A DNA stretch of 64,000 nucleotides from an uncultured Planctomycetales bacterium (GTDB lineage Bacteria > Omnitrophota > Gorgyraeia > Zapsychrales > JANLHA01). How positions within the stretch are numbered: position 1 is the stretch's first letter; each line of letters starts with the position of its first letter. The position numbers and the translations under genes were made by a program. Under the pieces are notes generated by a model. It saw only the letters and a program-made list of their open reading frames with translations, was not told the DNA's origin and made no database searches. This document shows positions 37,602-54,047 of this stretch, one piece after another. The DNA lies in assembly GCA_964450385.1 (NCBI GenBank), contig CAYVEC010000001.1:97104-161103 (forward strand), in the 5' to 3' direction.

Positions 37602-38864
37602 GTGGTTGTTCTCTATGATCTGATCTTTGTGGTTTTTGCTATTCTCTACGTTCCGTACCTTGTGATCCGCCGGAAATGGCATCCCCAGTTCAGGATGCGT
37701 CTCGGCCGGATCCCGCGATATCTGGTGCAGCGTTTCCGTGACCAGCCGCAGATTTGGGTTCATGCTGTCTCGGTCGGAGAGGTTATGACGGTCGTGGGGT
37801 TGGTCCAGGCGCTCAAGCGCCGGTATCCCCATCACGGGATCGTGCTCTCGACGGTGACAACGACCGGTTATGAGGTGGCCCGGGCCCAGCTTGCGCCTGA
37901 GGACGCGGTGATCTTTGCCCCGCTCGATTTTAGCCCGATCGTCCGGCACCTCGTCAGGGTGATCCGTCCTGTTCTCTATGTGACCGCGGAGACCGAGATC
38001 TGGCCCAATATTTTTTACGCCCTTCATCGGCGTTTTGTGCCGATCGTCATGGTCAACGGCCGCTTGTCGGATAAGGGGTTTCGCCGGTATCATTTAGGGC
38101 GGTGGTTTATTTATCGGGTGCTTCAGTATGTCCGCTTTTTCTGTATGCAGTCCGAACTTGATGCCGAGCGTGTGACCGCTCTTGGCGCCTCGCCCGCCAA
38201 GGTGGCGGTGACCGGGAATATGAAGTTCGACCAGGCTGGGCATGGCGCGGCGCATAAGGTCGACGCGGTCGTTGGGTCATGGACCGGTCCCGTCTGGATC
38301 GCGGGGAGTACGCATCCGGGCGAGGAGGCGATCGTCCTGCATGTCTTTAAACAGCTCCGGCTGGAATTCCCGCTGTTGAAGCTGATCGTGGTCCCCCGGC
38401 ATGTTGAACGGGTCGATGAGGTCGCGGCGATCATTCGTCAGGAGGGGCTGGAGTGTCAGCGGTATACGGAATTGGAAAATGGGGGCGCCTTGACTGGAAG
38501 GATCCTGCTCGTGGACGTGATCGGGCGTCTCAAAGGGCTTTACGCGGTGGCGAGCGTGGTGTTTGTTGGTAAGAGCCTGTGCGGCCGAGGCGGTCAGAAT
38601 ATGATCGAGCCGGCCTTCTTTGGGAAACCCGTCATCGTCGGGCCTCAGACCCAGAATTTTAAAAGCATTATCGAATTGCTTATCCGCCGTCAGGCCGTGT
38701 CGGTTGTTCGGAATCCCCAGGAACTCAGAGACGTCCTTAAAGATCTACTGCGAGACCCTGTCAAGGCTGGGGCCATGGGTGCGCGGGCGCGCGAGGTGGT
38801 CATGGACCAGCAGGGCGCGACCGTGAGGACCCTCGAGATCATCACAAATATCCTTCCAGAATAA
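37602..38864 (+). CDS. waaA: 3-deoxy-D-manno-octulosonic acid (Kdo) transferase
   Basis: The membrane-proximal N-terminus, GT-B KdtA pattern and length (420 aa) fit WaaA/KdtA. lpxK follows directly, as in many genomes. Confidence 0.9.
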   Translation: MVVLYDLIFVVFAILYVPYLVIRRKWHPQFRMRLGRIPRYLVQRFRDQPQIWVHAVSVGEVMTVVGLVQALKRRYPHHGIVLSTVTTTGYEVARAQLAPEDAVIFAPLDFSPIVRHLVRVIRPVLYVTAETEIWPNIFYALHRRFVPIVMVNGRLSDKGFRRYHLGRWFIYRVLQYVRFFCMQSELDAERVTALGASPAKVAVTGNMKFDQAGHGAAHKVDAVVGSWTGPVWIAGSTHPGEEAIVLHVFKQLRLEFPLLKLIVVPRHVERVDEVAAIIRQEGLECQRYTELENGGALTGRILLVDVIGRLKGLYAVASVVFVGKSLCGRGGQNMIEPAFFGKPVIVGPQTQNFKSIIELLIRRQAVSVVRNPQELRDVLKDLLRDPVKAGAMGARAREVVMDQQGATVRTLEIITNILPE

Positions 38865-38945: not shown

Positions 38946-40001
38946 ATGCGTGATTTTATATGGTCCATGATGACGGATCAGGGATCGGGTCTGGGGGTTC
39001 GTTTCGGCCAGGCTGTGTTATGGCTGTGTTCGATCGCTTATGGGGTGATTGTTCGGGGCCTTAGGTTTTTCTATTCTTCCGGAGTCCTGCCGTCGGTTTC
39101 TTTGCCCCGACCGGTCGTGTGTGTCGGCAATCTAACGATTGGGGGATCCGGGAAGACGCCCATGGTTGAATGGCTTGCGCGAGGCCTTGCCCGGCGCGGT
39201 CTTCGGCCAGCGGTCTTGACCCGAGGATATATGCCGCATGCTCAGGCGCCCGCGACGAGCGATGAGGCTGCTGAACTCGGCGAGGCCCTGCCAGGTATCA
39301 CGATGGCGGTGAATCCGGACCGTTCGGCTGGCGCTCGCGAGGCCTTGGGACGCGGGGAAGTCGATCTTTTTATTATGGATGATGGGTTTCAGCACTGGCG
39401 GGTCCGGCGGGATTGTGATGTGGTCGTGATCGATGCGATGAGCCCCTTTGGCAATCGACATGTTCTGCCGCGGGGGATCCTGCGTGAGCCGATCGGGGCG
39501 CTTGTCCATGCAGATGTCTTTGTGATCACCCGGTCAGACTTGGCCCCTGAAGGGGCGGCTTCTGTGAGGGCCTTTTTGAAAAAGACGTATCCGGGCCGGC
39601 TGATTATGATGACCCGACATCAGCCCGTTGCGGTTCGAGACCTGTCCTCGGGTAAGGAGGTCGGTCTTGAGGTGTTGAAGGGTCAGCGGGTTTGTGCTGT
39701 GGCTTCGATCGGGAACCCGGTCGGGTTTTATCGTACGATTGAACGGTTGGGCGTCGATATTGTGGATCGATATGAGAGGCCTGACCACCATGTTTATACG
39801 GCTGCTGAGGTTGATGCCTTGTGTTCGGGGCAAGGTGACCGGATTTTTATTACTACGATGAAGGATGCGGTTAAGCTTCGCGGGATTGTGCAGGAACGCT
39901 CGGCCGGCCAGGCCGGGACGTGGTATGCGCTCAAGATCGAGATTCGGACGGATGATGGTGAAGAACTCTTTAAAAAGATCTGCGGCCTGGCGGGCCGTTA
40001 A
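38946..40001 (+). CDS. lpxK: Tetraacyldisaccharide 4'-kinase
   Basis: ...VVCVGNLTIGGSGKTPMVEWLARGL... P-loop and LpxK collinearity; 351 aa. Confidence 0.9.
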   Translation: MRDFIWSMMTDQGSGLGVRFGQAVLWLCSIAYGVIVRGLRFFYSSGVLPSVSLPRPVVCVGNLTIGGSGKTPMVEWLARGLARRGLRPAVLTRGYMPHAQAPATSDEAAELGEALPGITMAVNPDRSAGAREALGRGEVDLFIMDDGFQHWRVRRDCDVVVIDAMSPFGNRHVLPRGILREPIGALVHADVFVITRSDLAPEGAASVRAFLKKTYPGRLIMMTRHQPVAVRDLSSGKEVGLEVLKGQRVCAVASIGNPVGFYRTIERLGVDIVDRYERPDHHVYTAAEVDALCSGQGDRIFITTMKDAVKLRGIVQERSAGQAGTWYALKIEIRTDDGEELFKKICGLAGR

Positions 40002-41943
40002 TGCTGCGGGCGGGTGCCTTCGGGCGCTGCCGTATGCCTGGGCCTGCCGGCTGGGGGCTGTTGCAGGGTATTTGATGTATTTGGTCGACGTCAGGCATCG
40101 GCGTCAGGTGTATCAGAATCTGAAGATCGCCTTTGGCCCGACAGCGTCGCGGCAGTCGCTTGCGCGTTGGACGCGTCAGTTTTTTATTCATTTTGGGATG
40201 AACATCGCGGAGTTCCTCTGTCTTCCATCGATGACCCCTGAGCGGGTTCAGACGTTGGTGACGGTGGAGCGGGGCGACCTGGTCGATGCCGCCGTGGCCC
40301 AGGGCAAGGGGCTCATTTTTTTGACGATGCATAACGGGAATTGGGAGATCCTCAGCCTGCGCGGCCGGTTAATGGTCGGCGATTACAACGTGATTTATAA
40401 GACGCAGAACCGGGATCGGGTCTTTGATTCGCTGATCTATGAGTATCGAATGCAGGCGCATATGGCCTGCGGCGGGGTCACTTTGTTTGAGCGGGGTGAG
40501 GGCGCGCGTGACCTCATGAGAGCTCTCCGGGATCGTGGGACGGTTGGTATTGTTTTTGATCAAGGAGGGAAGGAAGGGACGCCGGTTCATTTTTTCGGCC
40601 GTGAGGCGCGTTTTGCCGCGGGTGCCGTTCGATTGGCCTTGGCCACGGGCGCCCCGTTGTGTTTGGCAGCGATTCATCGTCAGGACGGCACGGGGCATCA
40701 TTGCATGACCGTGAAAAAGGTGATCTCGTGCGTCGCGAGCGGAGACCGTGACGCGGACGTCGCCCGGTACCTTCAGGAATGTGTGGCCTCGTATGAAGAG
40801 GAGATCCGCGCCTATCCGCAGGAATATATGTGGATGTATAAGATCTGGCGCTTTGATCCAGGGCGCCGGGTCCTGATCCTTGATGACGGCCGGACCGGGC
40901 ATCTCCGCCAGTCGGAGGCCGTGGCGGATCAGGTCCGGCGCCGTTTTGCCGAGCTGGGTTATCGCACAACGATCGAGGTGACCAAGGTCCCATATCATTT
41001 CCCTATCTTTCGGTTTATCGCGAATCTCTTGGGGCTTGTGGGCTGGGTTCTGCCCCGTTCGGTCTCGGGGATGTTTCTCTCTTGGCTTGTGAGCGACGAG
41101 GTGTTTAACGCTGTTTTTTCTCGACCGGCGGATGTGATCATTTCCTGCGGGTCGATGACCGGGGCGGTGAATTTGCTCCTGAGCCGTGAACATGAGGCGA
41201 TCAATATCGGGATCCTGCGTCAGGGGATATTGCCCGGTGGGTTCTTTAGCGCACTTGTCCTGCCCCAGCATGACTGCCCCGCAGCTCGTCGAGGGGTCAT
41301 CGTGACGCGCGGGGCGCCCAATTCGATCAATGCCGAATATCTCGCGGCCCAGGGGGAGGGGCTGCTCACCCGTTTTTCTCACTTAAGGGGGCACCACAAA
41401 TATCGGATCGGGATCCTTTTGGGGGGGGACACAAAAGAATATTCCCTTGACGAGGGATTGGTCCGGGCGGTGATCCATCAGGTCCAGGAGGTCGCGCGTG
41501 AGATCGATGCCGAGATCCTGATCACGACCTCGCGGCGGACATCGTCCGCGGTGGAGCGGGTCGTGCTGGCGGCGTGTAAGAACGATCCGCGGTGCGCGCT
41601 TGTCATCATCGCGAATAAAAAGAATGTGCCGGAGGCGATGGGGGGGATCTTGGCGCTCTCGGACCTCGTCGTAGTGTCGAGCGACAGTATCTCGATGGTC
41701 TCGGAGGCGGCCTCCTCTGGAAAAAAGACGGTCGTCTTTTCGGTTCAGCCGCATGAGCCGGGCCGGCCGCGGAACAAGCATCATGCTTTTGTCGACGGCC
41801 TGAACGCCGAGGGGTATGTTCTGTCATCGGATGCCCAGAACATGGCGGCCTCGATCTATAATTTGGTCAAAGAAAAGATCTCTCTGAAGACCCTCGATGA
41901 TCATGAGCGGATTTATCAGGGGTTACGGGAGATCGTGAGGTAA
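39952..41943 (+). CDS. Fusion protein: lipid A biosynthesis lauroyl/myristoyl acyltransferase (LpxL/HtrB-like) + ELM1/DUF1022 predicted glycosyltransferase domain
   Basis: The N-terminal about 300 aa carry the LPLAT/LpxL motif ...LIFLTMHNGNWEIL... (H-x4-[DE]). The C-terminal about 350 aa start ...VLILDDGRTGHLRQSEAVADQV..., typical of ELM1/DUF1022 proteins often encoded next to kdtA. The start is uncertain: the MM at 39952 was chosen, giving a 50-nt overlap with lpxK, while the listed ORF starts at 39865. Confidence 0.7.
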   Translation: MMVKNSLKRSAAWRAVNAAGGCLRALPYAWACRLGAVAGYLMYLVDVRHRRQVYQNLKIAFGPTASRQSLARWTRQFFIHFGMNIAEFLCLPSMTPERVQTLVTVERGDLVDAAVAQGKGLIFLTMHNGNWEILSLRGRLMVGDYNVIYKTQNRDRVFDSLIYEYRMQAHMACGGVTLFERGEGARDLMRALRDRGTVGIVFDQGGKEGTPVHFFGREARFAAGAVRLALATGAPLCLAAIHRQDGTGHHCMTVKKVISCVASGDRDADVARYLQECVASYEEEIRAYPQEYMWMYKIWRFDPGRRVLILDDGRTGHLRQSEAVADQVRRRFAELGYRTTIEVTKVPYHFPIFRFIANLLGLVGWVLPRSVSGMFLSWLVSDEVFNAVFSRPADVIISCGSMTGAVNLLLSREHEAINIGILRQGILPGGFFSALVLPQHDCPAARRGVIVTRGAPNSINAEYLAAQGEGLLTRFSHLRGHHKYRIGILLGGDTKEYSLDEGLVRAVIHQVQEVAREIDAEILITTSRRTSSAVERVVLAACKNDPRCALVIIANKKNVPEAMGGILALSDLVVVSSDSISMVSEAASSGKKTVVFSVQPHEPGRPRNKHHAFVDGLNAEGYVLSSDAQNMAASIYNLVKEKISLKTLDDHERIYQGLREIVR

Positions 41944-41949
41944 TTATTT

Positions 41950-44064
41950 ATGCGCGTGATGCAGATTTTGCCAGAACTTCAGGTGGGCGGGGTCGAGACC
42001 GGGACGGTTGATTTTGCCAAATACCTTCAGCGTCACGGCCATTATAACATTGTCGTTTCGCACGGAGGACGGATGGTCGCGGAGCTCGAGCGGCACGGGA
42101 TCCCGCATTATACCCTGCCGGTTCATAAAAAAAATCTGTTCACGGCGTGGAAGGCGGTCTCCGATGTCCGCGCCTTGATCATCCGGGAGCGGATCGATAT
42201 TGTGCATGCGCGCTCGCGGGTGCCGGCCTGGATCGCCTATTTCGCCTGCCGCGGGACATCCGCCCAATTTATCACGACCTGTCACGGCCATTATTCGGTT
42301 CAGTTCTTTTCGCGGGTGATGGGCTTCCCGAAGCTGATCATTGTGCCGAGCCGCGTCATCGGGCGGCATATGATCGATGCGTTCCATGTCGCGCCAGAGG
42401 CGGTCCGGTGCATTCCGCGCAGTGTCGATCAGAATCGTTTTAAACGGCGGGAGCAGGAGGCCCTCAATCGGTCGTATGCCGTGGTCACGATCGTCGGGCG
42501 GCTGTCGCCTATTAAAGGGCATACGTATTTTCTCAAGGCCATGGCGAAGGTTGTTCGGTCCATGCCCTATGTTCGTGTCCGGATCGTTGGGGATGTGGCG
42601 CCTCACAAAGAGTCGTACCGCCAGGAATTGGAGGTCCTGACCCGGCACCTCGGACTGGTGGCGCAGGTTGAATTTCTCGGTGACCGTCAGGATGTCCCGG
42701 AGATCCTTGCCGAGAGCGATGTCCTTGTCATGGCTTCGGTCGTGCCGGAGGCCTTCGGCCGCGTGATCCTTGAGGCCCAGGCCGTCGGTGTCCCGGTGGT
42801 CGCCACGGATGTGGGCGGGGTGGGGGAGGTTATTGAGCACGGCAAGACGGGTCTGTTGGTCCTGCCGCGCGATACGGACGCTATGGCCCAGGCTGTTTTG
42901 CGGATACTCAATGAACCGAAACTGGCCCGCGAGATGGTGGCCGCGGCATGGCGAAAGATCGATGATCAGTACACGCTTGAGCATATGGCCAGCCGGACCG
43001 TCGGGGTTTATGAGGAGCTGCTGAATCGGCAGAATATCTTGGTTATTAAACTCGGGGCCCTGGGGGATGTCGTGTTGATTACGGCATCGTTAAAGGCCTT
43101 GCGAAAGAAATTTCCGCAGGCGAAGATATCCTGCCTTGTCGGGGAGGCCTCGAAGGAGGTTCTTCAGAAGTGCGCTTCGATCGATGAGATGATCGTGGTG
43201 GATTTGAAGGGCCGGCATCGGGGGTGGCTTGGCGTGATTGCGATGGGCCGGCGCCTGGCTCAATGTCATTTTGACCGGGTTGTGGATTTTCAAAATAATG
43301 CCCGAAGTCATGTCCTGGCGGCCCTCACCGGTGCGGTCCATACCTATGGGTTCCGCAATCGCAAGCTCGGTTTTTTGTTGACCGATCCGGTTGAACAGGT
43401 CAATGATGATCTGCCGCCGGTTGAGCATCAGTTTCAGATTCTCAAATTATTGGGGATTGAGTATCAGGATGAGGTCGCCCTTGATGTCTCGATCTCTGAG
43501 CGAGATCGGAAGCGGGCCCAGGAGCTTCTCGCCGCGGAATGGATCACCGACGGGGTGCGGATGGTCGGGATGAATGTTGCAGCCTCGCCGCAATGGGTGA
43601 CGAAAAATTGGCCCGCGGCGTCGATGGCGCGGCTGTGCGATCTGTTGGCCTCGCGGAATCTTCGCGTGGCCTTGACGGGAACCGACAAAGACCGGGCAAC
43701 GGCCCAGGAGGTCCTTCGGTTGAGCCGGAGTAAACCCGCGGATCTGACCGGAAAGACAACGATCATGGAATTGTGCTGGATCATCAAGCGGTGTGAGGCC
43801 TATGTCTCTCCTGATTCCTGTCCGCTCCATCTCGCGGCCGCGATGCGAACACCGTTTGTCGCGTTATTTGGTCCGACATCATCACGGCGTCATCTGCCGC
43901 CGGGGCGGGGGGTTGTTCATGAGCGGTCAATGGCCTGCGCCCCATGCTATGAAAAATTTTGTAAGGAGGCGACGCATGCCTGTATGACGTCGATCTCGCC
44001 CGAAGAGGTCGCGGACTCGATCTATTCGTTTGTATCAAAGGAACACGGAAGAGGGGAGGCATGA
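41950..44064 (+). CDS. Bifunctional glycosyltransferase: N-terminal GT4 (GT-B, family 1 fold) domain fused to C-terminal GT9 heptosyltransferase-like domain
   Basis: Residues 1-350 have the GT4 E-x7-E region ...EAFGRVILEAQAVGVPVVATDVGGVGEVIEHGKTGLL.... Residues from about 360 start ...ILVIKLGALGDVVLITASLKALRKKFPQAKISC..., the GT9 (WaaC/WaaF) N-terminal signature. Confidence 0.8.
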   Translation: MRVMQILPELQVGGVETGTVDFAKYLQRHGHYNIVVSHGGRMVAELERHGIPHYTLPVHKKNLFTAWKAVSDVRALIIRERIDIVHARSRVPAWIAYFACRGTSAQFITTCHGHYSVQFFSRVMGFPKLIIVPSRVIGRHMIDAFHVAPEAVRCIPRSVDQNRFKRREQEALNRSYAVVTIVGRLSPIKGHTYFLKAMAKVVRSMPYVRVRIVGDVAPHKESYRQELEVLTRHLGLVAQVEFLGDRQDVPEILAESDVLVMASVVPEAFGRVILEAQAVGVPVVATDVGGVGEVIEHGKTGLLVLPRDTDAMAQAVLRILNEPKLAREMVAAAWRKIDDQYTLEHMASRTVGVYEELLNRQNILVIKLGALGDVVLITASLKALRKKFPQAKISCLVGEASKEVLQKCASIDEMIVVDLKGRHRGWLGVIAMGRRLAQCHFDRVVDFQNNARSHVLAALTGAVHTYGFRNRKLGFLLTDPVEQVNDDLPPVEHQFQILKLLGIEYQDEVALDVSISERDRKRAQELLAAEWITDGVRMVGMNVAASPQWVTKNWPAASMARLCDLLASRNLRVALTGTDKDRATAQEVLRLSRSKPADLTGKTTIMELCWIIKRCEAYVSPDSCPLHLAAAMRTPFVALFGPTSSRRHLPPGRGVVHERSMACAPCYEKFCKEATHACMTSISPEEVADSIYSFVSKEHGRGEA

Positions 44065-44068
44065 TTCG

Positions 44069-45175
44069 ATGAGAGTCTTGCTTGTGGCGAACCATTTTAA
44101 TATTGGAGGGATTGCCTCATATGTGAGCACTCTCGCGAAGAGGCTCTCGGAGAGGAATCATTATGTGTGTGTGGCCTCGAGCGGCGGGAGTCTCGAATCC
44201 CGTCTTCAGGCCTACGGCATCCCTCATGTCCAGGTCAGGGTCAAGACAAAGTCCGAGGTTTCACTGACGGCCTTTGCCGCGGTGCCCATCCTGCGTCGGC
44301 TGATGCGGGAGCAAAAGATCGATATCGTTCATTCGCATACCCGGGTGACCGATGTCGTCGCATCAATAGCGCGGCTCGGGCTTCCGGTCGAGCATGTGGA
44401 GACCTTCCATGGGTTTTATAAACGCCGGTTGGGACGGCGCTTGTTCCCTTGCATTGGATCAGCGGTGATCGCGATCAGTCCTCCTGTTCAGGAGCATCTG
44501 ATCGTGGACCATCATGTGCCGGCCGAGAAGATCGTGCTGATTCCAAACGGCATTGATGAGCAGCGTTTCATTCCCGTGGCCGCGCAGGATCGGTTGCGGA
44601 TCCGTCGGTCGCTCGGTCTTCCTGACGGGAAGATTATTGGTATGGTCTCACGGTTCTCCCGGATCAAAGGGCATCATGTCGCGATTGAGGCCTTGCCGCA
44701 GATCCTTCGCTCGGTGCCGGACGCACACCTTGTGTTCGTCGGTGATGGCGTTAAGCGTGGCGAGGTGGAAGACCTCGTGGCCGCGAAGGGGTTGACGGAC
44801 CGGATTCATTGCCTCGGTCAAGGGGTGTGGACTCATGAGTTTTATGCGGCCGTGGATTGCTATATCATGCCCTCGCTTCAGGAGGGACTTGGCCTGGCGC
44901 TGATGGAGGCCCAGTCCGCTGGCGCTCCGGTCGTTGGATCGCGGACCGGCGGGATCTTATCGCTCATCAAGGACGGCGTCACCGGGCTCCTTGTGACACC
45001 CGGGGATCCGCTTGATTTGGCACGGGCGGTCGTGAGGGTACTTCAGGATCCGGTCTTTGCCGCCGAGTTGGGCCGAGAGGCCCGGCGGTTCATTGAACGC
45101 GAGGGGACAGCGACCCGGATGACGGAACAGATCCTGGCGGTTTATGAACGGGTCTTGGCGGAAAGGCGGTCGTGA
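44069..45175 (+). CDS. Glycosyltransferase family 4 (GT-B)
   Basis: MRVLLVANHFNIGGIASYV... and the C-terminal ...EGLGLALMEAQSAGAPVVGSRTGGI...DGVTGLLV... motif match GT4. ATG at 44069 follows gaggggagg. Confidence 0.8.
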   Translation: MRVLLVANHFNIGGIASYVSTLAKRLSERNHYVCVASSGGSLESRLQAYGIPHVQVRVKTKSEVSLTAFAAVPILRRLMREQKIDIVHSHTRVTDVVASIARLGLPVEHVETFHGFYKRRLGRRLFPCIGSAVIAISPPVQEHLIVDHHVPAEKIVLIPNGIDEQRFIPVAAQDRLRIRRSLGLPDGKIIGMVSRFSRIKGHHVAIEALPQILRSVPDAHLVFVGDGVKRGEVEDLVAAKGLTDRIHCLGQGVWTHEFYAAVDCYIMPSLQEGLGLALMEAQSAGAPVVGSRTGGILSLIKDGVTGLLVTPGDPLDLARAVVRVLQDPVFAAELGREARRFIEREGTATRMTEQILAVYERVLAERRS

Positions 45176-46206
45176 TGCAGAGGCTCTTGGTGGTCAATGT
45201 CAATTGGATCGGTGATGTTGTTATGACGACGCCGGTCTTTCGGGCGTTGCGCCGCGAGTTTCCTTCGGCCTGGATCGCCTGCCTGGCGATGCCTCGGGTC
45301 ATCCCCGTCTTAGAATGTTGTCCTGAGATCGATGAGATCATCGTGAATGATGAGGAGGGCCGGCATCATGGGATCATCGGCATGGGGCGGCTTGTCCTGG
45401 CCGTACGGAAGAAACGTTTCGATGCGGTTTTTTTGCTTCATCGTTCCCGCACGCGCGCGGCGTTGATGTTCTTGGCAGGGATCCCGGTCCGGGTCGGTTA
45501 CAATGTTAAGCGCCTGGGCCCGCTCTTGACCCATGTGGTTGATCCCCTCGCTGGGGATGGTCATAAACGCGATCATTATTGTCAGGTTCTTGAATCGTTC
45601 GGCATTCCGGTTCCGGACCGGGTTACCCAGCTTGTCGTTCCGGAAAAAGAGCGCTCGGAGATCGCCTCGATCCTGCGGGCCCGAGGTATCGGCGAGGATG
45701 AGTCGGTCGTGGTCCTTCACGTTGGCGCGAATTGGGAGCTTAAACGCTGGCCGACCGAGCATGTGGTCCGCCTGATCCGACTGCTTCAAGGACGGACACG
45801 GATGAAGATTATTTTAAGCGGGGGAAAGGCGGACGAGGCGCTGGCCCGTTCGATCCTGGCCGGACTGAATGGAGGGGTCGTGTCGTTCACCGGCCAGTTG
45901 AGCCTCCGTCAGCTTGTTGCCTTGCTCGGCCGGGCCGCGGTTGTGGTCTCGGGTGATTCAGGACCCATGCATATCGCAAGCAGTGTGGGGGCCAACGTCG
46001 TTGCTGTCTTTGGTCCGACGAGTCCCGAGCATTCTGGGCCCTGCGGCCCGGGTGCGCACCAGGTCCTGCGGCACCAGTTTGAATGCAACCGCTATCCGTG
46101 TTATGAGGTGACCTGTGATCATCACCGCTGCATGCGTGATGTGACCCCGGATGAGGTTTGTGAGGCGGTGGTTCGGATGATCTCGATCGGGGAGGGGGGG
46201 CGATGA
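45172..46206 (+). CDS. ADP-heptose:LPS heptosyltransferase (GT9)
   Basis: ...LLVVNVNWIGDVVMTTPVFRALRREFP... is the GT9 signature. The start overlaps the upstream stop. Confidence 0.85.
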   Translation: MMQRLLVVNVNWIGDVVMTTPVFRALRREFPSAWIACLAMPRVIPVLECCPEIDEIIVNDEEGRHHGIIGMGRLVLAVRKKRFDAVFLLHRSRTRAALMFLAGIPVRVGYNVKRLGPLLTHVVDPLAGDGHKRDHYCQVLESFGIPVPDRVTQLVVPEKERSEIASILRARGIGEDESVVVLHVGANWELKRWPTEHVVRLIRLLQGRTRMKIILSGGKADEALARSILAGLNGGVVSFTGQLSLRQLVALLGRAAVVVSGDSGPMHIASSVGANVVAVFGPTSPEHSGPCGPGAHQVLRHQFECNRYPCYEVTCDHHRCMRDVTPDEVCEAVVRMISIGEGGR

Positions 46207-47213
46207 GACGGGTGAATCCTGCGAGGGTAAAAAAGATTCTGCTCATTACCTTGAGTAATCTCGGCGATGTTGTGTTGACCTTTCCTGTGCTCGATATCCT
46301 TTTGCGTGATTTTCCTCAGGCCGAGATCTCGGTCGTGTTGGGACCAAAAACAAAGGGACTGCTGATTGATCACCCTCGGATCAAAAATATTTATATTTAT
46401 CACAAGCATGATTCGTGGGGGCAAAAGTTCCGGTGGGCCCTTGAACTGCGAAAGGTCGGTTTTGATTTTGTTGTTGACCTTCGGCATGGCGTCTTGCCAC
46501 TCCTGATCGGCGCGCGTTATATGACCCCGTTGATCCGTCGGCGTGGCGAGGGTCATATGAAAGAGAAGCATCTGGCCTGTCTCTTGCAGATTCATCCTGT
46601 TCAACCCGCGGAAGATTGCGGGGCGCTTTTTATTTCGGATGGGGACCGGGCACAGGTGCGGCAATATCTTGCCGGCATTATCACAGCTCAGGATCGGTAT
46701 CTGGTCATCGCCCCTGGGGCTGCCGATCATCGCAAACGTTGGACTGAGGAGGGTTTTGCTGAGGTCGCGGACTGGGTGGTCCAGCAGTACGGATTAAAAG
46801 TCGTTTTTGTTGGTCTTTCTGAGGAGACCGTCCTCATTGAACGGATCCAGGCGCGGATGCGGATGACCTCACTGAATCTGGCTGGCCGTTTGAGCCTGAT
46901 TCAAGTGGCATGTCTGCTGCAGCAGGCCTCGCTCGCCGTGATGAATGACAGCGGGCTCATGCATCTCTCGAGCTATCTTGATGTCCCGACGGTCGCGGTG
47001 TTCGGCCCGACCGACCCGGCACGGGTTTTTCCCTGGGCCTCGCGCGCGGCTTTCGTGCGCTGTCATGAAGCATGTGCGGCCTGCACCGCTGGAGATCGAA
47101 CAAGTTTTGAACACACGTGCATGGCTGCGGCATCCGGGGCCATCGTGAAACAGCGGGTTGATGAGATATTACAGGGCACGATGAAAGGGCGCGATGCAGG
47201 GCAACGGGGTTGA
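46203..47213 (+). CDS. ADP-heptose:LPS heptosyltransferase (GT9)
   Basis: ...ILLITLSNLGDVVLTFPVLDILLRDFP... is the GT9 signature. 4-nt overlap with the upstream gene. Confidence 0.85.
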   Translation: MRRVNPARVKKILLITLSNLGDVVLTFPVLDILLRDFPQAEISVVLGPKTKGLLIDHPRIKNIYIYHKHDSWGQKFRWALELRKVGFDFVVDLRHGVLPLLIGARYMTPLIRRRGEGHMKEKHLACLLQIHPVQPAEDCGALFISDGDRAQVRQYLAGIITAQDRYLVIAPGAADHRKRWTEEGFAEVADWVVQQYGLKVVFVGLSEETVLIERIQARMRMTSLNLAGRLSLIQVACLLQQASLAVMNDSGLMHLSSYLDVPTVAVFGPTDPARVFPWASRAAFVRCHEACAACTAGDRTSFEHTCMAAASGAIVKQRVDEILQGTMKGRDAGQRG

Positions 47214-48249
47214 ACCGAGACAAATTTTGGTGGTGCGGACGGACCGTATTGGGGACGTGGTCTTGACGACCCCTGCCTTGCGGCGATTGCGCGCGCGTTT
47301 CCCGGAGGCCTGGATTGCGATTTTGGTCTCGCCGGTCACGACGGATCTCTTGAAAGGCAATCCTGACGTTGACAAGGTTCTAGTCGATGACCGACGGGGC
47401 CGTCACCGTGGGCTCATTGGGTTTTGCCGTCTTGTCACCGAGCTTCGGCGGTTCCGATTTGATCTAGCGATTAATCTTCATACGAAACGGCGTTCGAATC
47501 TATTGCTCTTTTGTTCGGGGATCCCGCGCCGGATTGGATACCGGAACGAGAAGTGGGGTCATTTGCTGACTGAGCCGCTTCTTGACCAGCGGACCCAGGG
47601 ACTGCGTCATGAGGCGCAGTATTGTGTCGATGCCCTGAGACCGCTCGGGGTCGCGGTCGATGGGCCTCTGGTGCCTCGGATTGAGGTTGATGACGCGGAC
47701 CGGCAATGGGCGGCAGAGAGGGTGCGCGAATGGGGTCTCACGCCGGGAGACCGGATTATCGCGATCCACGCCGGCTCAAGCTGTCCGACTAAGTGTTGGC
47801 CCCTGGAAAATTTTGCCGAGCTGATGGAGGATGTCGCGCGACGCTATCAGACGGTCTTTGTGCTTGTCGGCGAGCAGGTGGAGTCGGGTTCACGAGACCC
47901 TTTATCCGGTCTTGCTGGCCGTCTCAAGGTCGTTGATCTTCGCGGTCAGACGACGCTTGGTGAATTGGCCGGTCTTTTTGCCGTTGTTCATGCCGTGATT
48001 TCAAATGATTCGGGCCCTGTCCATATCGCGGATGCCGTGGGCGCACCGGTGGTCTCAATCTTTACGCGCAATCAGCCAGGGATCAATCCTGAGCGCTGGC
48101 GGCCTCTGGGCCCGCGTTCCCACTGGGTGGCGCCGCCCTCGGATGCTTCTGTTTCGTTTGCTGACGGGAAGGTTCATGATCCCGCACAGCTTAAAAAAGT
48201 CTCGGTTCGGGATGTTTTAGCCGAGGTTGACGCTATTTTCCAAGTATGA
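47194..48249 (+). CDS. ADP-heptose:LPS heptosyltransferase (GT9)
   Basis: ...ILVVRTDRIGDVVLTTPALRRLRARFP... is the GT9 signature; 351 aa. Confidence 0.8.
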   Translation: MQGNGVEPRQILVVRTDRIGDVVLTTPALRRLRARFPEAWIAILVSPVTTDLLKGNPDVDKVLVDDRRGRHRGLIGFCRLVTELRRFRFDLAINLHTKRRSNLLLFCSGIPRRIGYRNEKWGHLLTEPLLDQRTQGLRHEAQYCVDALRPLGVAVDGPLVPRIEVDDADRQWAAERVREWGLTPGDRIIAIHAGSSCPTKCWPLENFAELMEDVARRYQTVFVLVGEQVESGSRDPLSGLAGRLKVVDLRGQTTLGELAGLFAVVHAVISNDSGPVHIADAVGAPVVSIFTRNQPGINPERWRPLGPRSHWVAPPSDASVSFADGKVHDPAQLKKVSVRDVLAEVDAIFQV

Positions 48250-48296: not shown

Positions 48297-49328
48297 GTGC
48301 TTAAAAATGCACGTTCGATCGTTGCGAAATTCAAGGATAAATGCATCGTGGTTGTTGGGGATGTGATCCTGGACCGCTATATTCAGGGTTCGGTTTCGCG
48401 GATATCTCCTGAGGCGCCGGTGCCGGTTGTCTTAGAGGAAACATTTTCCTATAAACCTGGCGGGGCTGCGAATGTTGCCCACAATCTTTCTGTTTTAGGG
48501 GCTACTGTGGTACAGGTTGCCCGTGTCGGGATCGATTTTGAGGGGAATCTGCTCAGGCGCGACCTTAAAAGAAAAGGGATCAATATCAGCGGGATTTTTT
48601 CTGACAAAAATATTCACACGATCACCAAAACACGTGTTATTGCCCAGCATCAGCAGGTTGTTCGGATCGATCGGGAAAAACGGGATGCCCGGGTTAATAA
48701 GGCCGTTGATCAGCGGATCATGGATTTTTTGCCTGGAGCGATCAAAAAGAGCGACGGGGTCATTATCTCGGATTATGGAAAAGGCATGATCACTCCGCAG
48801 CTTGTTGATATGATCCGTGAGGTCGCGTTGTCGAACCGGATCCCGCTCACCGTGGACCCCAAGGTGGAACATTTTGGATCCTATCGTAATGTCACCTGTA
48901 TCACCCCCAATCTGAAAGAGGCGGAGAACGCGATCCGCAATATCAAGATCCGCGAGGCGACGGGGCAGAATTTGGATTTGCGGACTGATCGGCTTGAGAC
49001 TATGGCCGATGTCGATCTTGCCGGCAAGAAATTATTGGAGTATCTTGAACTGGAATCGCTCCTGATCACGCTCGGTGAACACGGGATGAGGCTCTTCGAA
49101 CGCGGAGCTAGGCCTTATGCGATCGAAACCCGGGCGCAGGAGGTGTTCGACGTGACCGGTGCGGGTGATGCCGTGGTTTCGGTCTTTACCTTGGCGCTCA
49201 CAGCGGGCGCGAGTAAGCGCCAGGCCGCGGAGCTCGCGAATTATGCCGCGGGTGTTGTCGTTGGGAAAATGGGTGCCGTGGCTGTGACACCTGAGGAGCT
49301 GTTGGGGGCGATAAGGAGCCGAGGATGA
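48297..49328 (+). CDS. hldA: D-glycero-beta-D-manno-heptose-7-phosphate kinase (HldE kinase domain / HldA, pfkB family)
   Basis: ...CIVVVGDVILDRYIQGSVSRISPEAPVPVV... and ...DVTGAGDAVVSVFTLAL... are ribokinase/pfkB-fold heptose kinase motifs. There is no fused adenylyltransferase domain. GTG start follows aaggag. Confidence 0.85.
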   Translation: MLKNARSIVAKFKDKCIVVVGDVILDRYIQGSVSRISPEAPVPVVLEETFSYKPGGAANVAHNLSVLGATVVQVARVGIDFEGNLLRRDLKRKGINISGIFSDKNIHTITKTRVIAQHQQVVRIDREKRDARVNKAVDQRIMDFLPGAIKKSDGVIISDYGKGMITPQLVDMIREVALSNRIPLTVDPKVEHFGSYRNVTCITPNLKEAENAIRNIKIREATGQNLDLRTDRLETMADVDLAGKKLLEYLELESLLITLGEHGMRLFERGARPYAIETRAQEVFDVTGAGDAVVSVFTLALTAGASKRQAAELANYAAGVVVGKMGAVAVTPEELLGAIRSRG

Positions 49329-50071
49329 AGGCGATCGGGGTGATTCCGGCGCGGTGGGGGTCGACTCGTTTTCCTGGCAAGGTCCTGGCCGTGATTCACG
49401 GACGGCCGATGATCCAGTATGTCTGGGAGCAGGCGCAGAAGGCCGCGCGTCTTGATGAGGTCATTGTGGCCTGTGATGATGCCCGGGTGTGTCGCGCGGT
49501 TGAGGGGTTTGGCGGCCGGGCGGTCATGACATCGCCGGGTCACGTCTCGGGTACGGATCGTATCGCTGAGGCGGTGGGCAATTCGGACGCGGATATCGTG
49601 ATCAATATTCAGGGAGATGAGCCGCTCATAGAACCCACGGTGATCGATCAGCTTGTTGGTGCCCTTGAAAGGGATACGGAGAGCGTTATGGCAACGGTGG
49701 TCCGCCGGATCACGGATGACGCCATGTTGGATAATCCGAATGTCGTGAAGGTTGTTGTTGATCGGCATCATCAGGCGTTGTATTTTTCTCGCGCACCGAT
49801 CCCCTATGACCGTGACGGGAATCATCCCGTGCGGGGCTATCAGCACCTCGGTCTTTATGGCTATCGCACGTCATTTCTGATGGGGTTCCGGGATCTTCCG
49901 GCCTCGGTTTTGGAGCAGACGGAACGTCTCGAACAGCTCCGGGTCTTAGAGGCCGGGTATCGGATCGTGGTCGTTGAGACAGCCTATGAAACGATTGGGG
50001 TTGATACGCCCGAAGACCTTGAGCGTGTCGCCCGTTATCTGTCGAGGGGGGAATATGGTCAAACCGGTTAA
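49325..50071 (+). CDS. kdsB: 3-deoxy-manno-octulosonate cytidylyltransferase (CMP-Kdo synthetase)
   Basis: MKAIGVIPARWGSTRFPGKVLAVIHGRPMIQYV... matches KdsB. Confidence 0.9.
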   Translation: MKAIGVIPARWGSTRFPGKVLAVIHGRPMIQYVWEQAQKAARLDEVIVACDDARVCRAVEGFGGRAVMTSPGHVSGTDRIAEAVGNSDADIVINIQGDEPLIEPTVIDQLVGALERDTESVMATVVRRITDDAMLDNPNVVKVVVDRHHQALYFSRAPIPYDRDGNHPVRGYQHLGLYGYRTSFLMGFRDLPASVLEQTERLEQLRVLEAGYRIVVVETAYETIGVDTPEDLERVARYLSRGEYGQTG

Positions 50072-50888
50072 AGCGGGGAAGATTGTTTTTGGGGGCGGGG
50101 CGCCGCTCGTCTTGATCGCGGGTCCCTGCGTGATCGAGGATGAAGGGACGGTCATGCGGATCGCGGAGCGGCTGTCTGAGATGACCGGCCGGCTGGGGAT
50201 CCCATTCGTATTTAAGGCGAGTTATGACAAGGCGAATCGGACATCGGTGACGGGGTTTCGAGGACCCGGCATTGATGACGGGCTCCGGATCCTCTCGGAT
50301 GTCAAAACGAGGTTCGGGGTGCCGATCTTGAGCGACGTGCATTCGCCTGAGGAGGTCGCAAAGGCGGCCCGTGTCCTTGATGTGCTTCAGATCCCGGCGT
50401 TTCTCTGCCGGCAGACGGATCTTCTTGCCGCCGCGGCGCGGTCAGGCCGGGTTGTGAATATCAAGAAGGGTCAGTTCCTTGCGCCTTGGGATATGCGTCA
50501 GGCCGCGGCCAAGGTGACAGAGAGCGGGAATGATCAGGTCCTTTTGACCGAGCGCGGGTCGAGTTTCGGGTATAACACCCTGGTCACGGATTTTCGGTCT
50601 CTGCCGATCATGCGCGAGATCGGGTTTCCCGTGATCCTCGACGCCTCGCATAGTGTTCAAAAACCAGGAGGGCTCGGATCGGCCTCCGGCGGTAACAGTG
50701 AATATATTCCGCTCATGGCCCGCTGCGGGGCCGCTGCGGGATGCGATGGGATCTTTATGGAGGTTCATGAGAATCCCGAAAAGGCGCTCTCCGACGGACC
50801 GAACATGCTGTCCCTCGATCGGCTTGAGGACGTCCTCCGGGATGTTCAGGTGATCGACGCGCTTGTGAAACAACGGATAAAGGAATAA
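50055..50888 (+). CDS. kdsA: 2-dehydro-3-deoxyphosphooctonate aldolase (Kdo-8-P synthase)
   Basis: ...LVLIAGPCVIEDEG... plus DAHP/KDO8P synthase collinearity. ATG at 50055; the listed ORF starts upstream at 49974. Confidence 0.9.
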   Translation: MVKPVKAGKIVFGGGAPLVLIAGPCVIEDEGTVMRIAERLSEMTGRLGIPFVFKASYDKANRTSVTGFRGPGIDDGLRILSDVKTRFGVPILSDVHSPEEVAKAARVLDVLQIPAFLCRQTDLLAAAARSGRVVNIKKGQFLAPWDMRQAAAKVTESGNDQVLLTERGSSFGYNTLVTDFRSLPIMREIGFPVILDASHSVQKPGGLGSASGGNSEYIPLMARCGAAAGCDGIFMEVHENPEKALSDGPNMLSLDRLEDVLRDVQVIDALVKQRIKE

Positions 50889-50892
50889 GACG

Positions 50893-51852
50893 ATGTCATT
50901 AGCGAAAGCACGGAAGGTGATCTTGACTGAGGCCGCTGGGCTTGAGGAGCTGGCGCGCAAACTTGATCGGTCGTTCTTAAAGGCGGTCGAGATGATTTTA
51001 GCGAGCAAGGGCCGGCTTATTGTCTCGGGGATGGGCAAGACCGGGATCGTGGGGCGCAAGATCGCCGCGACCCTCTCGTCGACCGGGACCCCGAGCCTTT
51101 GGATGCACAGCGCTGAGGCGGTCCATGGGGATCTCGGTCAGGTGACGGCCCAGGATGTGGTCATGGTCATTTCAACGAGCGGGGAGACCGAAGAGACAAC
51201 GCGACTGGTTCCTCTGCTCAAGAAGATGGGGGTTCCAACGATCGCGGTGACCGGGAATCCCAAGTCCCGTCTGGCCTGTCACGCCGATGTTGTCCTTGAT
51301 GTGGGTGTCGCTGAGGAAGGCTGCCCGTTGGGCCTTGCCCCGATGGCCTCGACGACCGCAACCCTCGCGATGGGGGATGCCCTGGCGGCCTGTCTTATTG
51401 TCCGTCGGGGTTTTCGAAAAGAGGATTTCGCCTTTTTTCATCCCGGGGGTGCCCTCGGCCGGCAGTTGTATTTATCCGTGGCGGATCTTATGCGCAAGGG
51501 TCGGCATTACCCGTGTGTCCGTGAGGACGTGATCGTCAAAGATGTGCTTAAAGAGGTCACGCGCGCCCGATGTGGTTCCGCCTGTGTGGTGACGCGGACC
51601 GGCAAGCTCATCGGGATCCTGACGGATGGCGATATCCGGAGGAACCTTGAGCACGGTGAGGCCTTTCTGAACCGAAAGGTGAGCGAGGTCATGACCCGGC
51701 ATCCGGTCTCGGTGGTTGCGGACCATCTTGCGGTGGAGGCCTTTCAGCTCCTGAAGGAACGTAAGATCGATGAGCTTCCTGTGGTGGATGCGAAGGGTCT
51801 GTCGGTTGGATTGCTCGATATTCAAGATTTATTACGCGCGGGGTTATTTTAA
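50893..51852 (+). CDS. kdsD: Arabinose-5-phosphate isomerase (SIS + tandem CBS domains)
   Basis: SIS motif ...LIVSGMGKTGIVGRKIAATLSSTGTP... and a C-terminal CBS pair; 319 aa. Confidence 0.9.
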   Translation: MSLAKARKVILTEAAGLEELARKLDRSFLKAVEMILASKGRLIVSGMGKTGIVGRKIAATLSSTGTPSLWMHSAEAVHGDLGQVTAQDVVMVISTSGETEETTRLVPLLKKMGVPTIAVTGNPKSRLACHADVVLDVGVAEEGCPLGLAPMASTTATLAMGDALAACLIVRRGFRKEDFAFFHPGGALGRQLYLSVADLMRKGRHYPCVREDVIVKDVLKEVTRARCGSACVVTRTGKLIGILTDGDIRRNLEHGEAFLNRKVSEVMTRHPVSVVADHLAVEAFQLLKERKIDELPVVDAKGLSVGLLDIQDLLRAGLF

Positions 51853-52386: not shown

Positions 52387-53226
52387 ATGAACTATTGTCT
52401 TCAGATGGGGCGGATCGTACTGGTGGCAGGGCTGATGGTAGTTGTGGTTTCTGGCACGGGGTGGCCCCAGGGTGTGCAGCAGACGGTGGATGGATTTAAC
52501 CTGGAGGGGTTCTCCGGTGAGGGGGAGCCGGCCTGGAATGTGCGCGGCAGCACTGCGGATGTTTTAGGCGATACGATTAAAATTCGTGATGTTGATGCTA
52601 ATGCGTATGGTGAGCAAGACGTGAATATCACGGCGGATCATGGCGAATATGACAAGACCAGCGGTAATGTTCGGCTCAATACCAATGTGGTCGTGACAAC
52701 GCAGGAGGGTGGGCAGCTCAAGACCGATGAGTTGAATTGGGATAAGACGAATAATGTCGTGACAAGCGATAAAGAGGCCGTGATCACGGATAAGGGGATG
52801 GTCGCGACGGGTAGCGGCCTCATCGCCCATCCGGACTTAAAGACCGCTCAGTTGAATAAAGATGTGACGGTTGAGATGGAGACGAATTCTCGGCCGCAGG
52901 ATCCGACCACGATGAAGATCACGTGCGTGGGGCCGATGGAATTCGATCAACTCAATAATATCGCGACCTTTCGTGATCAGGTGGTTGCGGTTCGGGCGGA
53001 CCAGACCCTGAGGGCGGATAAGGTCGAGGTGAATTTCGATCCGGGTACGAAAAAAGTCGCAACCATCATTTGTACCGACAACGTTTCGGTCACCCGGGGG
53101 CAGAACACGACCTATTCGGACAAGGCCATTTACAGCGCGGCTGATCAGAAGATCATTTTTGTGGGGCGCCCCCGACTCATCATGCAGGGAGATGTCCCGG
53201 AGGAAGTCTTGTCGCTCGGGCAGTGA
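52387..53226 (+). CDS. LPS export periplasmic protein, LptC/LptA (OstA-like beta-jellyroll) family, with N-terminal membrane anchor
   Basis: An N-terminal TM helix is followed by a repetitive beta-strand-rich sequence (...ITADHGEYDKTSGNVRLNTNVVVT...LRADKVEVNF...) typical of the LptC/LptA OstA-like fold. Its position between kdsC and lptB matches the E. coli kdsD-kdsC-lptC-lptA-lptB order. Only one ORF (279 aa) is present where E. coli has two. Confidence 0.6.
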   Translation: MNYCLQMGRIVLVAGLMVVVVSGTGWPQGVQQTVDGFNLEGFSGEGEPAWNVRGSTADVLGDTIKIRDVDANAYGEQDVNITADHGEYDKTSGNVRLNTNVVVTTQEGGQLKTDELNWDKTNNVVTSDKEAVITDKGMVATGSGLIAHPDLKTAQLNKDVTVEMETNSRPQDPTTMKITCVGPMEFDQLNNIATFRDQVVAVRADQTLRADKVEVNFDPGTKKVATIICTDNVSVTRGQNTTYSDKAIYSAADQKIIFVGRPRLIMQGDVPEEVLSLGQ

Positions 53227-53318: not shown

Positions 53319-54047
53319 ATGTCGGTAAACCTTTTAGAGACCAAGGGACTTGTTAAAAAGTATGGCGGTCGAACGGTTGTCGATAATCTGAGCATCTCGG
53401 TCGGCCGCTCAGAGATCGTCGGGATCCTCGGGCCCAATGGGGCAGGGAAGACGACATCGTTCTATATGATCGTCGGCATCATTCCGAGTGACGGGGGCAA
53501 CATTTTTTTTGATCAGCAGGACGTGACCCGGATGCCGATCCATCTGCGCTGCCGGCTGGGCATGGGGTATCTGGCCCAGGAGGCCTCGATCTTTCGAAAG
53601 CTCACGGTTGAAGAGAACATCATGGCGATCCTCGAGACCCTTGACATTGGACCGGCGGAGCGGCGGCATCGTCTGACGGCCCTTTTGGAAGAATTGAATA
53701 TCGGGCACCTTGCCAAGAGTAAGGCCTATACCCTCTCGGGGGGGGAACGTCGACGGCTTGAGATCACCCGGGCCCTTGTCACGAATCCGTCATTTTTGCT
53801 CCTGGATGAGCCGTTCTCCGGGATCGATCCGATTGTGGTCGCGGAGGCCCAGGATATCATTAAATCGCTCAAGCATCGGGGGCTTGGGATCCTGCTCACG
53901 GATCATAATGTGCGCGAGACCCTGTCGATCACGGACCGCGCCTATCTGATCGCCGACGGGAATGTCCTGATCTCTGGGACCGCGGCGGATCTGATCAATG
54001 ATCCGAAGGCCAAGGAGATTTACCTCGGGGACAAATTTCAGATGTAG
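53319..54047 (+). CDS. lptB: LPS export ABC transporter ATP-binding protein
   Basis: Walker A GPNGAGKTTSF, signature LSGGERRRLEITRAL and Walker B LLLDEPFSGIDP are present. 242 aa. It lies downstream of the lptC/A-like gene. Confidence 0.9.
   Translation: MSVNLLETKGLVKKYGGRTVVDNLSISVGRSEIVGILGPNGAGKTTSFYMIVGIIPSDGGNIFFDQQDVTRMPIHLRCRLGMGYLAQEASIFRKLTVEENIMAILETLDIGPAERRHRLTALLEELNIGHLAKSKAYTLSGGERRRLEITRALVTNPSFLLLDEPFSGIDPIVVAEAQDIIKSLKHRGLGILLTDHNVRETLSITDRAYLIADGNVLISGTAADLINDPKAKEIYLGDKFQM

Follow-up and report, generated by a model that had tools for sequence, protein, structure and literature searches.

The window is the whole 64,000 nt stretch of DNA that was analysed, from a probable Omnitrophota genome, and the genes considered here all lie on its forward (+) strand. 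The first of them is waaA (Kdo transferase, GT30; 37602–38864), recognised by PF04413 (E 3.5e-58) and by NF004388 (E 6.9e-106, below its cut-off). It is followed by lpxK (tetraacyldisaccharide 4′-kinase; 38946–40001), with PF02606 at E 4.9e-78 and TIGR00682 above its cut-off. The 3′ end of lpxK overlaps by 50 nts the start of an ORF at 39952–41943 (663 aa plus stop), in which an LpxL-type acyltransferase domain is joined to a KdoT/ELM1-family GT-B glycosyltransferase domain. An earlier note on this DNA had placed such an ORF directly after waaA and lpxK, and both genes are indeed immediately upstream. The next gene 3′ is also a fusion according to Pfam (41950–44064, 704 aa); its halves are a GnaT/LpsB-like GT4 (about 41950–43023) and a heptosyltransferase-like GT9 (about 43030–44064). 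Further core glycosyltransferases come after it, a GT4 at 44030–45175 and three GT9 genes at 45172–46206, 46203–47213 and 47194–48249. Kdo supply is represented by kdsB-like (49325–50071, PF02348), kdsA-like (49974–50888, PF00793) and kdsD-like SIS+CBS (50893–51852, PF01380+PF00571) genes.

The frame of the fused ORF is open from 39865 to 41943, giving 692 aa when counted from its first ATG, and has no internal stop. A start at 39952 yields the 663 aa of a protein already public (P0001, 100% identity over 663 aa), and the N-termini of homologues agree with this start. The junction is very short. Only about 5 residues (40852–40866) separate the last helix of the LpxL domain (YKIWR) from the first GT-B strand (RRVLILDD), and in the sampled alignment rows of fused homologues their number is constant, without gaps. 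That one frame carries both domains, as had been claimed from the letters alone, is borne out by Pfam. PF03279 and PF06258 are both present far beyond chance, the latter in the C-terminal half, and the two motifs quoted at the outset are found, LTMHNGNWEIL in the first domain and ILDDGRTGHLRQSEAVAD in the second (aa 309–326, nt ~40876–40929). Inspection of nt 40800–40900, the interval in which a frameshift or stop had been thought worth looking for, found no stop or frame change, and the reading frame there is intact. The AlphaFold (AF2) model of the full-length protein is of high confidence (pLDDT 95.4, pTM 0.92) and shows a compact two-domain protein, compatible with a fixed arrangement of the two domains.

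Two adjacent genes can be merged by a sequencing error, and for a single contig an assembly or annotation artefact of this kind, which the earlier note had itself named as a danger, would deserve consideration. It is contradicted by the relatives. Full-length fused homologues number at least 120 independent database proteins, with 33–49% identity to the window protein. A GTDB genome scan with the pattern [DE]S[IV]SM[IV]SE gave the fusion in 70 of the best 80 species-representative loci, all from Omnitrophota-type MAGs, the remaining loci being LpxK~KdoT fusions or contig-end cases; the survey of relatives that had been proposed thus makes the fused state the rule in the clade. These genomes come from many studies and assemblers, and the fused ORF is present on long contigs too (1.19 Mb and 3.36 Mb in L051 and L001). 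The one pattern which an artefact might explain is in L005/L031, where the two halves are parted by an in-frame TAG and TAA followed by a GTG restart. However, this split is derived, since two conserved Lys codons have been replaced by the stops. Reassignment of these stop codons at the L005 junction was considered and rejected: given the GTG restart after them and the normal ends of the genes downstream, the case was judged to be an ordinary secondary split or a pseudogenisation. At the family level the artefact explanation is already refuted, and for the window protein it is hardly credible.

The prevailing gene order among the relatives is waaA-lpxK-[LpxL~KdoT]-[GT4~GT9]-GT4, and a GT4 follows the ELM1 domain in nearly all loci with sufficient downstream sequence. 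A minority of relatives have an LpxK~KdoT fusion, a GT9~KdoT fusion or stand-alone genes. The expectation that the ELM1 family is usually encoded by a separate gene next to kdtA holds in part. It is right for Natroniella acetigena, whose stand-alone homologue has waaA immediately before it and a GT4 immediately after, but not for Acinetobacter baumannii, in whose chromosome the neighbour of kdoT is ilvE, nor for the present clade, in which the domain is fused. One stand-alone relative (L007) is flanked by methyltransferases and a GT2, and lipid A genes are not beside it.

The acyltransferase half (aa 14–300; 39991–40851) matches PF03279 with E 7.6e-34 (117.7 bits, cut-off 22.3), over profile positions 17–294 of 295, and belongs to the lysophospholipid-acyltransferase family of LpxL and LpxM. 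Its HX4E catalytic motif, H127-N-G-N-W-E132, is at 40330–40347; among 116 homologues H127, G129, W131 and E132 are invariant, as are R166 and D203. PF03279, the HX4E dyad and the fold are shared with E. coli LpxL, with A. baumannii LpxM (5KN7) and with mycobacterial PatA, and the lpxK/waaA neighbourhood is a further likeness to LpxL/LpxM. The known LpxL, LpxM and PatA proteins have some 300 aa and a single domain; unlike them the fusion bears a C-terminal GT-B domain. It also differs from LpxL/LpxM in passing no equivalog threshold (all 17 NCBIfam models score below cut-off on this half, the best, NF006270, at 126.9 bits vs 248) and in the hydropathy scan, where an obvious transmembrane anchor was not found: no 19-residue window in the fusion is clearly transmembrane-like, and the family-averaged N-terminus reaches 1.44. 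A hydrophobic insertion at aa 350–368, in the other half, was entertained as a membrane hairpin and dropped, family-level support being absent.

Could the first domain be a PatA-like acyltransferase that modifies another glycolipid or a core sugar, in a manner coupled to glycosylation? The unmet LpxL/LpxM thresholds would suit this, as would the lack of a clear N-terminal transmembrane helix in the hydropathy scan, the score of the NCBIfam PatA model (NF005919), which is close to those of the LpxL models, and the Foldseek comparison, in which PatA 5F2Z (TMt 0.87) comes above LpxM 5KN7 (TM 0.68, E 6.4e-12). The PDB profile search gives the opposite order, with LpxM 5KN7 best at E 2.4e-25 and PatA at 1.3e-18. 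Moreover, the lpxK overlap and upstream waaA recur in nearly all the genomes, and the fusion is alone in the cluster as a PF03279-type gene. A PatA-like role is improbable.

For the other half much has changed recently. The earlier description of its family, DUF1022, as predicted but uncharacterised is out of date: A. baumannii KdoT (GtrOC1/A1S_2903), a PF06258 protein, is a CMP-Kdo:Kdo2-lipid IVA Kdo transferase (PMC10936431; PMC12856342). That it adds a third Kdo to Kdo2-lipid IVA, with CMP-Kdo as the donor, was demonstrated in December 2025 (PMC12856342). The purified protein is catalytically active and its preferred acceptor is tetra-acylated Kdo2-lipid IVA, on which LpxL acts as well. The further step is carried out by GnaT (LpsB), a GT4 UDP-GlcNAcA transferase. 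The name ELM1 is historical. It comes from the plant namesake of PF06258, a mitochondrial-fission adaptor without an enzyme role (PMC10936431). Recruitment of dynamin-related protein to mitochondria, the task of that adaptor, has no bearing on a bacterium.

In the fusion the KdoT/ELM1/GtrOC1-family domain extends over aa 304–663 (40861–41940), and PF06258 matches aa 316–654 with E 1e-45 (156.6 bits vs a cut-off of 27, and 203.5 bits for A. baumannii KdoT). The KdoT and LpsB sequences used for comparison were taken from chromosomes of A. baumannii that carry a wrong plasmid label, and the identity of the KdoT sequence was confirmed by finding D8, H13, H109, D110, R179 and R180 at their published positions. 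BLASTP of the C-terminal domain against it gives 30% identity (E 7e-19) and hhalign a probability of 99.8% (E 5.2e-28, 245 columns); within the window KdoT matches the fusion ORF only. Every one of the six residues has a counterpart. D312-G-R-T-G-H317 (40885–40902) corresponds to D8...H13, with H317 and G316 invariant and D312 kept in at least 90% of the fused homologues. P438-Q-H440-D441 (41263–41274) corresponds to H109/D110. TTSRRT (41524–41541) aligns with the KdoT TTSRRT, and its SRRT motif (S527 R528 R529 T530, the arginines being R179/R180 of KdoT) is invariant in 116 fused sequences and in 22 mixed sequences which include stand-alone members. R180 is required for KdoT function, and the proposed role of the motif is to hold the Kdo carboxylate in place (PMC12856342). 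To these can be added the glycine loop G491-G-D-T-K495 (41422–41436), which begins the donor-binding lobe and aligns with GGSSK of KdoT (G491 and G492 invariant, K495 kept in at least 90% of the fused homologues), and the helix motif SSDSISMVSEA (41677–41709), with S579, S581, M582 and E585 invariant. PF06258, the GT-B fold and the D8/H13, H109/D110, GGxxK, SRRT and DSxSMxxEA motifs are thus common to KdoT and the fusion. The differences are that KdoT is a stand-alone protein of 296 aa while the domain here has 360 aa, is covalently joined to an LpxL-type acyltransferase, and has two insertions (aa ~345–375 and ~461–476) that are absent from KdoT.

The AF2 model of the C-terminal domain (pLDDT 96.3) has two Rossmann-like lobes with alternating strand-helix order. 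Its significant matches among PDB structures are exclusively GT-B enzymes or epimerases; the structure comparison found no near relative, only generic GT-B matches of TM 0.4–0.57, and a PDB profile search did not find an ELM1-family relative with a solved structure. No NCBIfam model matched this half.

That the ELM1 domain might be catalytically inert and serve the acyltransferase as a scaffold or regulatory module has some appeal in that plant ELM1 is an adaptor (PMC10936431) and single mutants at the candidate catalytic bases of KdoT are without phenotype (PMC12856342). Yet KdoT is active when purified, and the invariant GH, HD, GG..K, SRRT and SxSMxxE of the fusion are residues kept in that active enzyme. 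Inertness is very improbable.

A more serious question is whether the domain, in a real fusion, is a KdoT paralogue which uses another donor sugar or acts at another inner-core position. PF06258 paralogues, GtrOC14/19a/19b/22, are present in variable A. baumannii outer-core loci, several of them within single loci; it is improbable that every one of them transfers Kdo, and they probably have specificities other than that of KdoT. The level of identity to KdoT and the two insertions that it lacks can also be read in this sense, and the abundance of GT9 genes in the cluster points to a core with heptose, different from the one in Acinetobacter. The conservation of SRRT, with its proposed role in placing the Kdo carboxylate, points the other way, as does the position of the fusion next to waaA and near Kdo-synthesis genes. 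So does the observation that even a highly divergent Rickettsia homologue complements delta-kdoT.

The adjacent GT4 gives a further argument against a changed specificity. Among 1550 matching records its best match is LpsB of A. baumannii (E 2e-58, with 33.6% identity at 100% coverage), in a reference set that is biased, consisting of plasmids and a few mislabelled chromosomes. In the reciprocal direction the best match of LpsB/GnaT within the window is this GT4 half (1e-63), the second GT4 reaching only 7.7e-30. The likeness to GnaT, at ~33% identity, covers its full length and lies in the N-terminal half of the 704-aa protein. Partnership with a GnaT/LpsB-like GT4 is therefore a feature of both systems, though kdoT adjoins ilvE in the A. 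baumannii outer-core locus, with lpsB elsewhere, while here the GT4 partner is the adjacent gene. Unlike GnaT, this adjacent GT4 carries a fused GT9 heptosyltransferase-like domain. With this evidence on both sides, a paralogue of other specificity is unlikely but is the rival to be taken most seriously.

The preferred reading, to which we give a probability of roughly 0.7, is that the fusion is a bifunctional late acyltransferase and inner-core Kdo transferase. Its N-terminal domain would use the HX4E dyad for a secondary acylation of Kdo2-lipid IVA. The C-terminal domain, by homology to KdoT, would attach an extra Kdo, donated by CMP-Kdo, to the Kdo2 unit built by the upstream WaaA. Established by the analysis are the fused state and how widely it is conserved, the families to which the domains belong, their conserved motifs and the order of the genes. 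We infer the donor sugar, as we do the acyl donor, the position that would be acylated, the order of both reactions and any substrate channelling. As both domains would act on the same lipid acceptor, the link of about 5 residues would bring late acylation and the step that opens inner-core extension to one place, and possibly couple them. The product of the GT4~GT9 gene would supply the follow-on enzymes, its GnaT/LpsB-like GT4 capping the new Kdo with the GT9 heptosyltransferase-like domain attached. Counted against this assignment were the identity to KdoT of only ~30% in a family with paralogues, the non-lipid-A setting of L007, the acyltransferase half falling under the NCBIfam equivalog cut-offs, the generic nature of the GT-B structure matches, and the KdoT–GnaT complex that was looked for in A. 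baumannii, where none was detected. From this last result physical coupling is not general to the pathway.

A stronger version can be imagined, in which the fusion is a processive machine whose two active sites fix the sequence of late Raetz-pathway steps in Omnitrophota, and in which the KdoT domain, with LpxL, LpxK and GT9 as its partners, organises a complex for LPS assembly at the inner membrane. Since KdoT favours tetra-acylated Kdo2-lipid IVA, the third Kdo may then be added first and Kdo3-lipid IVA be passed straight to the acyltransferase site. If so, the ‘LpxL’ domain would be a Kdo3-dependent acyltransferase and the substrate order would be new. This processive version is speculative and we consider it doubtful.

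Fused proteins are already in public databases (NCBI) under a family-level name, and in a literature search on KdoT, DUF1022/PF06258, LpxL fusions and the LPS of Omnitrophota no paper was found that describes the fusion. Fused enzymes have precedents in LPS pathways, the HldE kinase/adenylyltransferase of E. coli and the ArnA formyltransferase/decarboxylase. As in these, two steps of one envelope-glycolipid pathway are combined in a single polypeptide. However, HldE and ArnA join soluble steps that modify nucleotide sugars, whereas the fusion joins two predicted membrane-surface transferases acting on a lipid acceptor.

That a fusion of this kind should link the activity of ELM1 with Kdo2-lipid A accords well with what is now known, as KdoT and LpxL both use Kdo2-lipid IVA. 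With the activity of KdoT already known, the fusion corroborates an activity and does not reveal one, and existing knowledge is not overturned. As a Rosetta-stone fusion it is independent genomic support that KdoT-family enzymes act on the acceptor of LpxL, biochemical proof of which is only as old as December 2025. Fused in nature and modelled with confidence, the two-domain protein is also an attractive structural target in a glycosyltransferase family without a solved structure. The non-canonical split Kdo route, with WaaA and KdoT followed by a GnaT-like GT4, would be present beyond Acinetobacter and Rickettsia in an entire uncultured phylum of the PVC group, and it apparently reaches diderm Bacillota (Natroniella) as well. 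In these bacteria there may be a physical coupling between late acylation and the extension of the inner core, which bears on the unexplained co-dependence of KdoT and GnaT in vivo.

The fusion of an LpxL-type acyltransferase to an ELM1 domain claimed in the earlier note is real. One uninterrupted ORF runs from 39865 to 41943 (+), and when read from the start at 39952 that the earlier note had used, it encodes 663 aa with its sole stop the terminal one. It lies directly behind waaA (37602-38864) and lpxK (38946-40001), as had been claimed, with a 50-nt overlap between lpxK and its start. Pfam search places the lipid A acyltransferase domain PF03279 at aa 14-300 (E 7.6e-34) and PF06258 (Mito_fiss_Elm1) in the C-terminal half at aa 316-654 (E 1e-45), both far over the curated cut-offs. 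The two motifs by which the domains had been recognized are at aa 124-134 and aa 309-326. A database protein on a 167-kb NCBI contig (P0001) has the same length and sequence. The AlphaFold model of the full-length protein is confident (pLDDT 95.4, pTM 0.92), as is that of the C-terminal domain (pLDDT 96.3). On structure comparison the N-terminal half resembles LpxM and PatA, and no NCBIfam equivalog threshold is reached by it. The only structural matches of the C-terminal half are generic GT-B folds; no solved structure with sequence kinship to it was found.

Two genes merged by an assembly error was the alternative to be weighed. A search of 5.8 billion proteins gave 211 matches, the best 120 of which are all two-domain proteins of ~650 aa with 33-49% identity to the fusion, and a GTDB scan with one genome per species found a relative encoded in at least 580 genomes. 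Recurrence of the fusion in so many database proteins, and in most of the best species loci, excludes an assembly artefact for the family. In an alignment of 116 homologues the last LpxL helix (consensus EYMWFYKIWKYS) and the first GT-B strand (ILxDGxTGHLRQS) flank a junction that, in the rows sampled, is without gaps and has about 5 variable residues. When the 80 best GTDB loci were sorted into classes with domain HMMs, 70 had the LpxL~ELM1 fusion (the tilde denoting domains in one polypeptide), 4 a Pfam-confirmed LpxK~ELM1 fusion, and 6 were at contig ends and unclassifiable. All 80 belong either to Omnitrophota or to MAGs that carry, in ENA, the label Planctomycetales, Planctomycetia or just 'uncultured bacterium'. 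When the C-terminal domain alone was the query of an exhaustive HMMER search, 2231 cluster representatives matched at E<=1e-3; among the best 150, LpxL~ELM1 accounts for 105, LpxK~ELM1 for 3, GT9~ELM1 for 1 and apparently stand-alone ELM1 for 19, the remainder being fragments. LpxL~ELM1 is a phylum-wide domain architecture, previously undescribed as far as literature searches show. It joins two known kinds of enzyme, and the proteins are already in databases under the family name.

The survey of split versus fused forms also found a split judged to be derived. In one MAG (locus L005, identical to L031, 262-303) in-frame TAG and TAA take the place of both conserved Lys codons in the junction YKIWKYS, and a GTG restart after them separates lpxL from the ELM1 gene. 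The split may have come about by recent fission or by an error, or be a pseudogene. The LpxK~ELM1 proteins (about 715-724 aa, P0157 and P0188 included) come from an Omnitrophota subclade (L049:1813-3981, L053:4915-7068, L075:4909-7080, L078:2831-4972), with no LpxL-type domain inside ~6 kb of them. The GT9~ELM1 protein (P0241, 736 aa) has PF01075 and PF06258; at another locus (L008:1-2078) GT9 and a stand-alone ELM1 are two genes, the GT9 gene running over the ELM1 start. A crude neighbour-joining tree without bootstrap, rooted on Acinetobacter baumannii KdoT, has stand-alone ELM1 genes in basal position and the LpxK-fused genes as one subclade inside the LpxL-fused clade, a pattern that suggests a single ancient fusion and later, secondary remodelling.

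The earlier interpretation was essentially right, but its premise that ELM1 activity is uncharacterized is out of date. Genetics in 2024 showed that A. baumannii A1S_2903 (GtrOC1, PF06258) and LpsB are needed to add KdoIII and GlcNAcA to Kdo2-lipid A (PMC10936431). In December 2025 A1S_2903 was purified and named KdoT; it transfers a third Kdo from CMP-Kdo to Kdo2-lipid IVA, favours a tetra-acylated over a hexa-acylated acceptor and requires R180 within an invariant SRRT motif, LpsB (renamed GnaT) adds GlcNAcA next, no complex between KdoT and GnaT was detected in A. baumannii, and a Rickettsia homologue complements a kdoT deletion (PMC12856342). That paper makes no mention of fusions, the word occurring 0 times. 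The KdoT and LpsB reference sequences used here came from A. baumannii chromosomes that carry a wrong plasmid label, and their identity was checked by published residue numbers (KdoT D8, H13, H109, D110, R179 and R180; GnaT E283). [PLSDB files several 3.6-4.1 Mb A. baumannii chromosomes as 'plasmids' (NZ_CP064203.1, NZ_CP077849.1 and NZ_CP104448.1; loci L089, L090), a data-quality issue.]

The window domain matches KdoT with an hhalign probability of 99.8% (E 5e-28, 245 columns) and, by BLASTP, 30% identity (E 7e-19). KdoT D8 corresponds to D312 of the window protein, H13 to H317, H109/D110 to H440/D441, GGSSK to G491-K495, SRRT to S527-T530 and DSVSMVFEA to D578-A586, and these motifs are where the Omnitrophota family is invariant or near-invariant. 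An additional helical hairpin of ~25-30 residues, absent from A. baumannii KdoT, is present in the acceptor-side lobe of the Omnitrophota domain. At aa 345-392 of the window protein (nt 40984-41127) it is hydrophobic (FPIFRFIANLLGLVGWVLP), a property inconsistent across the family. PF06258 paralogues with other likely specificities exist, and one stand-alone ELM1 relative is in an unrelated glycan cluster.

The next gene (41950-44064, +) encodes a 704-aa fusion of a GT4 to a heptosyltransferase-like GT9, which recurs in nearly all related loci. Over its full length the GT4 half (41950-43023) has A. baumannii LpsB/GnaT as best match among 1550 matching records (33.6% identity, E 2e-58), its next non-Acinetobacter matches being at 5e-50 and 1e-35. 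With LpsB as query the GT4 half comes out at E 1e-63, far ahead of the second GT4 (7.7e-30), so the best match is reciprocal. In Natroniella acetigena, a diderm member of the Bacillota (Halanaerobiales; L006, JALKBX010000026.1, 4795-11029), the order is waaA, a Kdo/WaaP-family kinase, a stand-alone ELM1, a GT4 and two more Kdo/WaaP-family kinases, a hint that a KdoT-like step is at the centre of a phosphorylated inner core. Given the LpsB match in the window and the ELM1, GT4 order in Natroniella, the KdoT-then-GT4 pairing is conserved across phyla, as adjacent genes in the window.

In relatives' loci the order dprA-topA-xerC-waaA-lpxK-[LpxL~ELM1]-[GT4~GT9]-GT4-GT9 is conserved, with proteins 34-41% identical, and 'waaA lpxK N~C gt4~gt9 gt4' is the dominant string in the census. 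Further downstream in the window are three GT9 genes, a PfkB kinase, kdsB/kdsA/kdsD-like genes, an LptC+LptA-like protein and an ABC ATPase; the fusion is the only PF03279-type or ELM1 gene of the whole 64 kb. The kdsB-like ORF (49325-50071, +) overlaps the kdsA-like ORF (listed from 49974, through 50888) by ~98 nt as listed, and kdsA probably begins at a point downstream of 49974. A 279-aa ORF at 52387-53226 (+) with LptC (PF06835, aa 29-162) and LptA/LptD-N (PF03968, aa 185-264) matches may be an LptC~LptA fusion, and behind it is an LptB-like ABC ATPase (53319-54047). Elsewhere a 536-aa protein of the uncharacterized DUF1846 family (21253-22863, +; PF08903 E 5e-171, plus PF20921) is encoded between a GMP-synthase-like gene and carB.

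Kdo2-lipid IVA made by WaaA would be bound by the fused protein at the inner face of the inner membrane. There its KdoT domain would add a further Kdo, with CMP-Kdo as the predicted donor, its HX4E acyltransferase domain would add a secondary acyl chain, and the GnaT-like GT4~GT9 protein would then extend the core. Use of one acceptor by both domains would give a simple rationale for fusing them. The LpxK~KdoT and GT9~KdoT fusions are in keeping with a general tendency for the KdoT domain to become tethered to enzymes of lipid A and the inner core.
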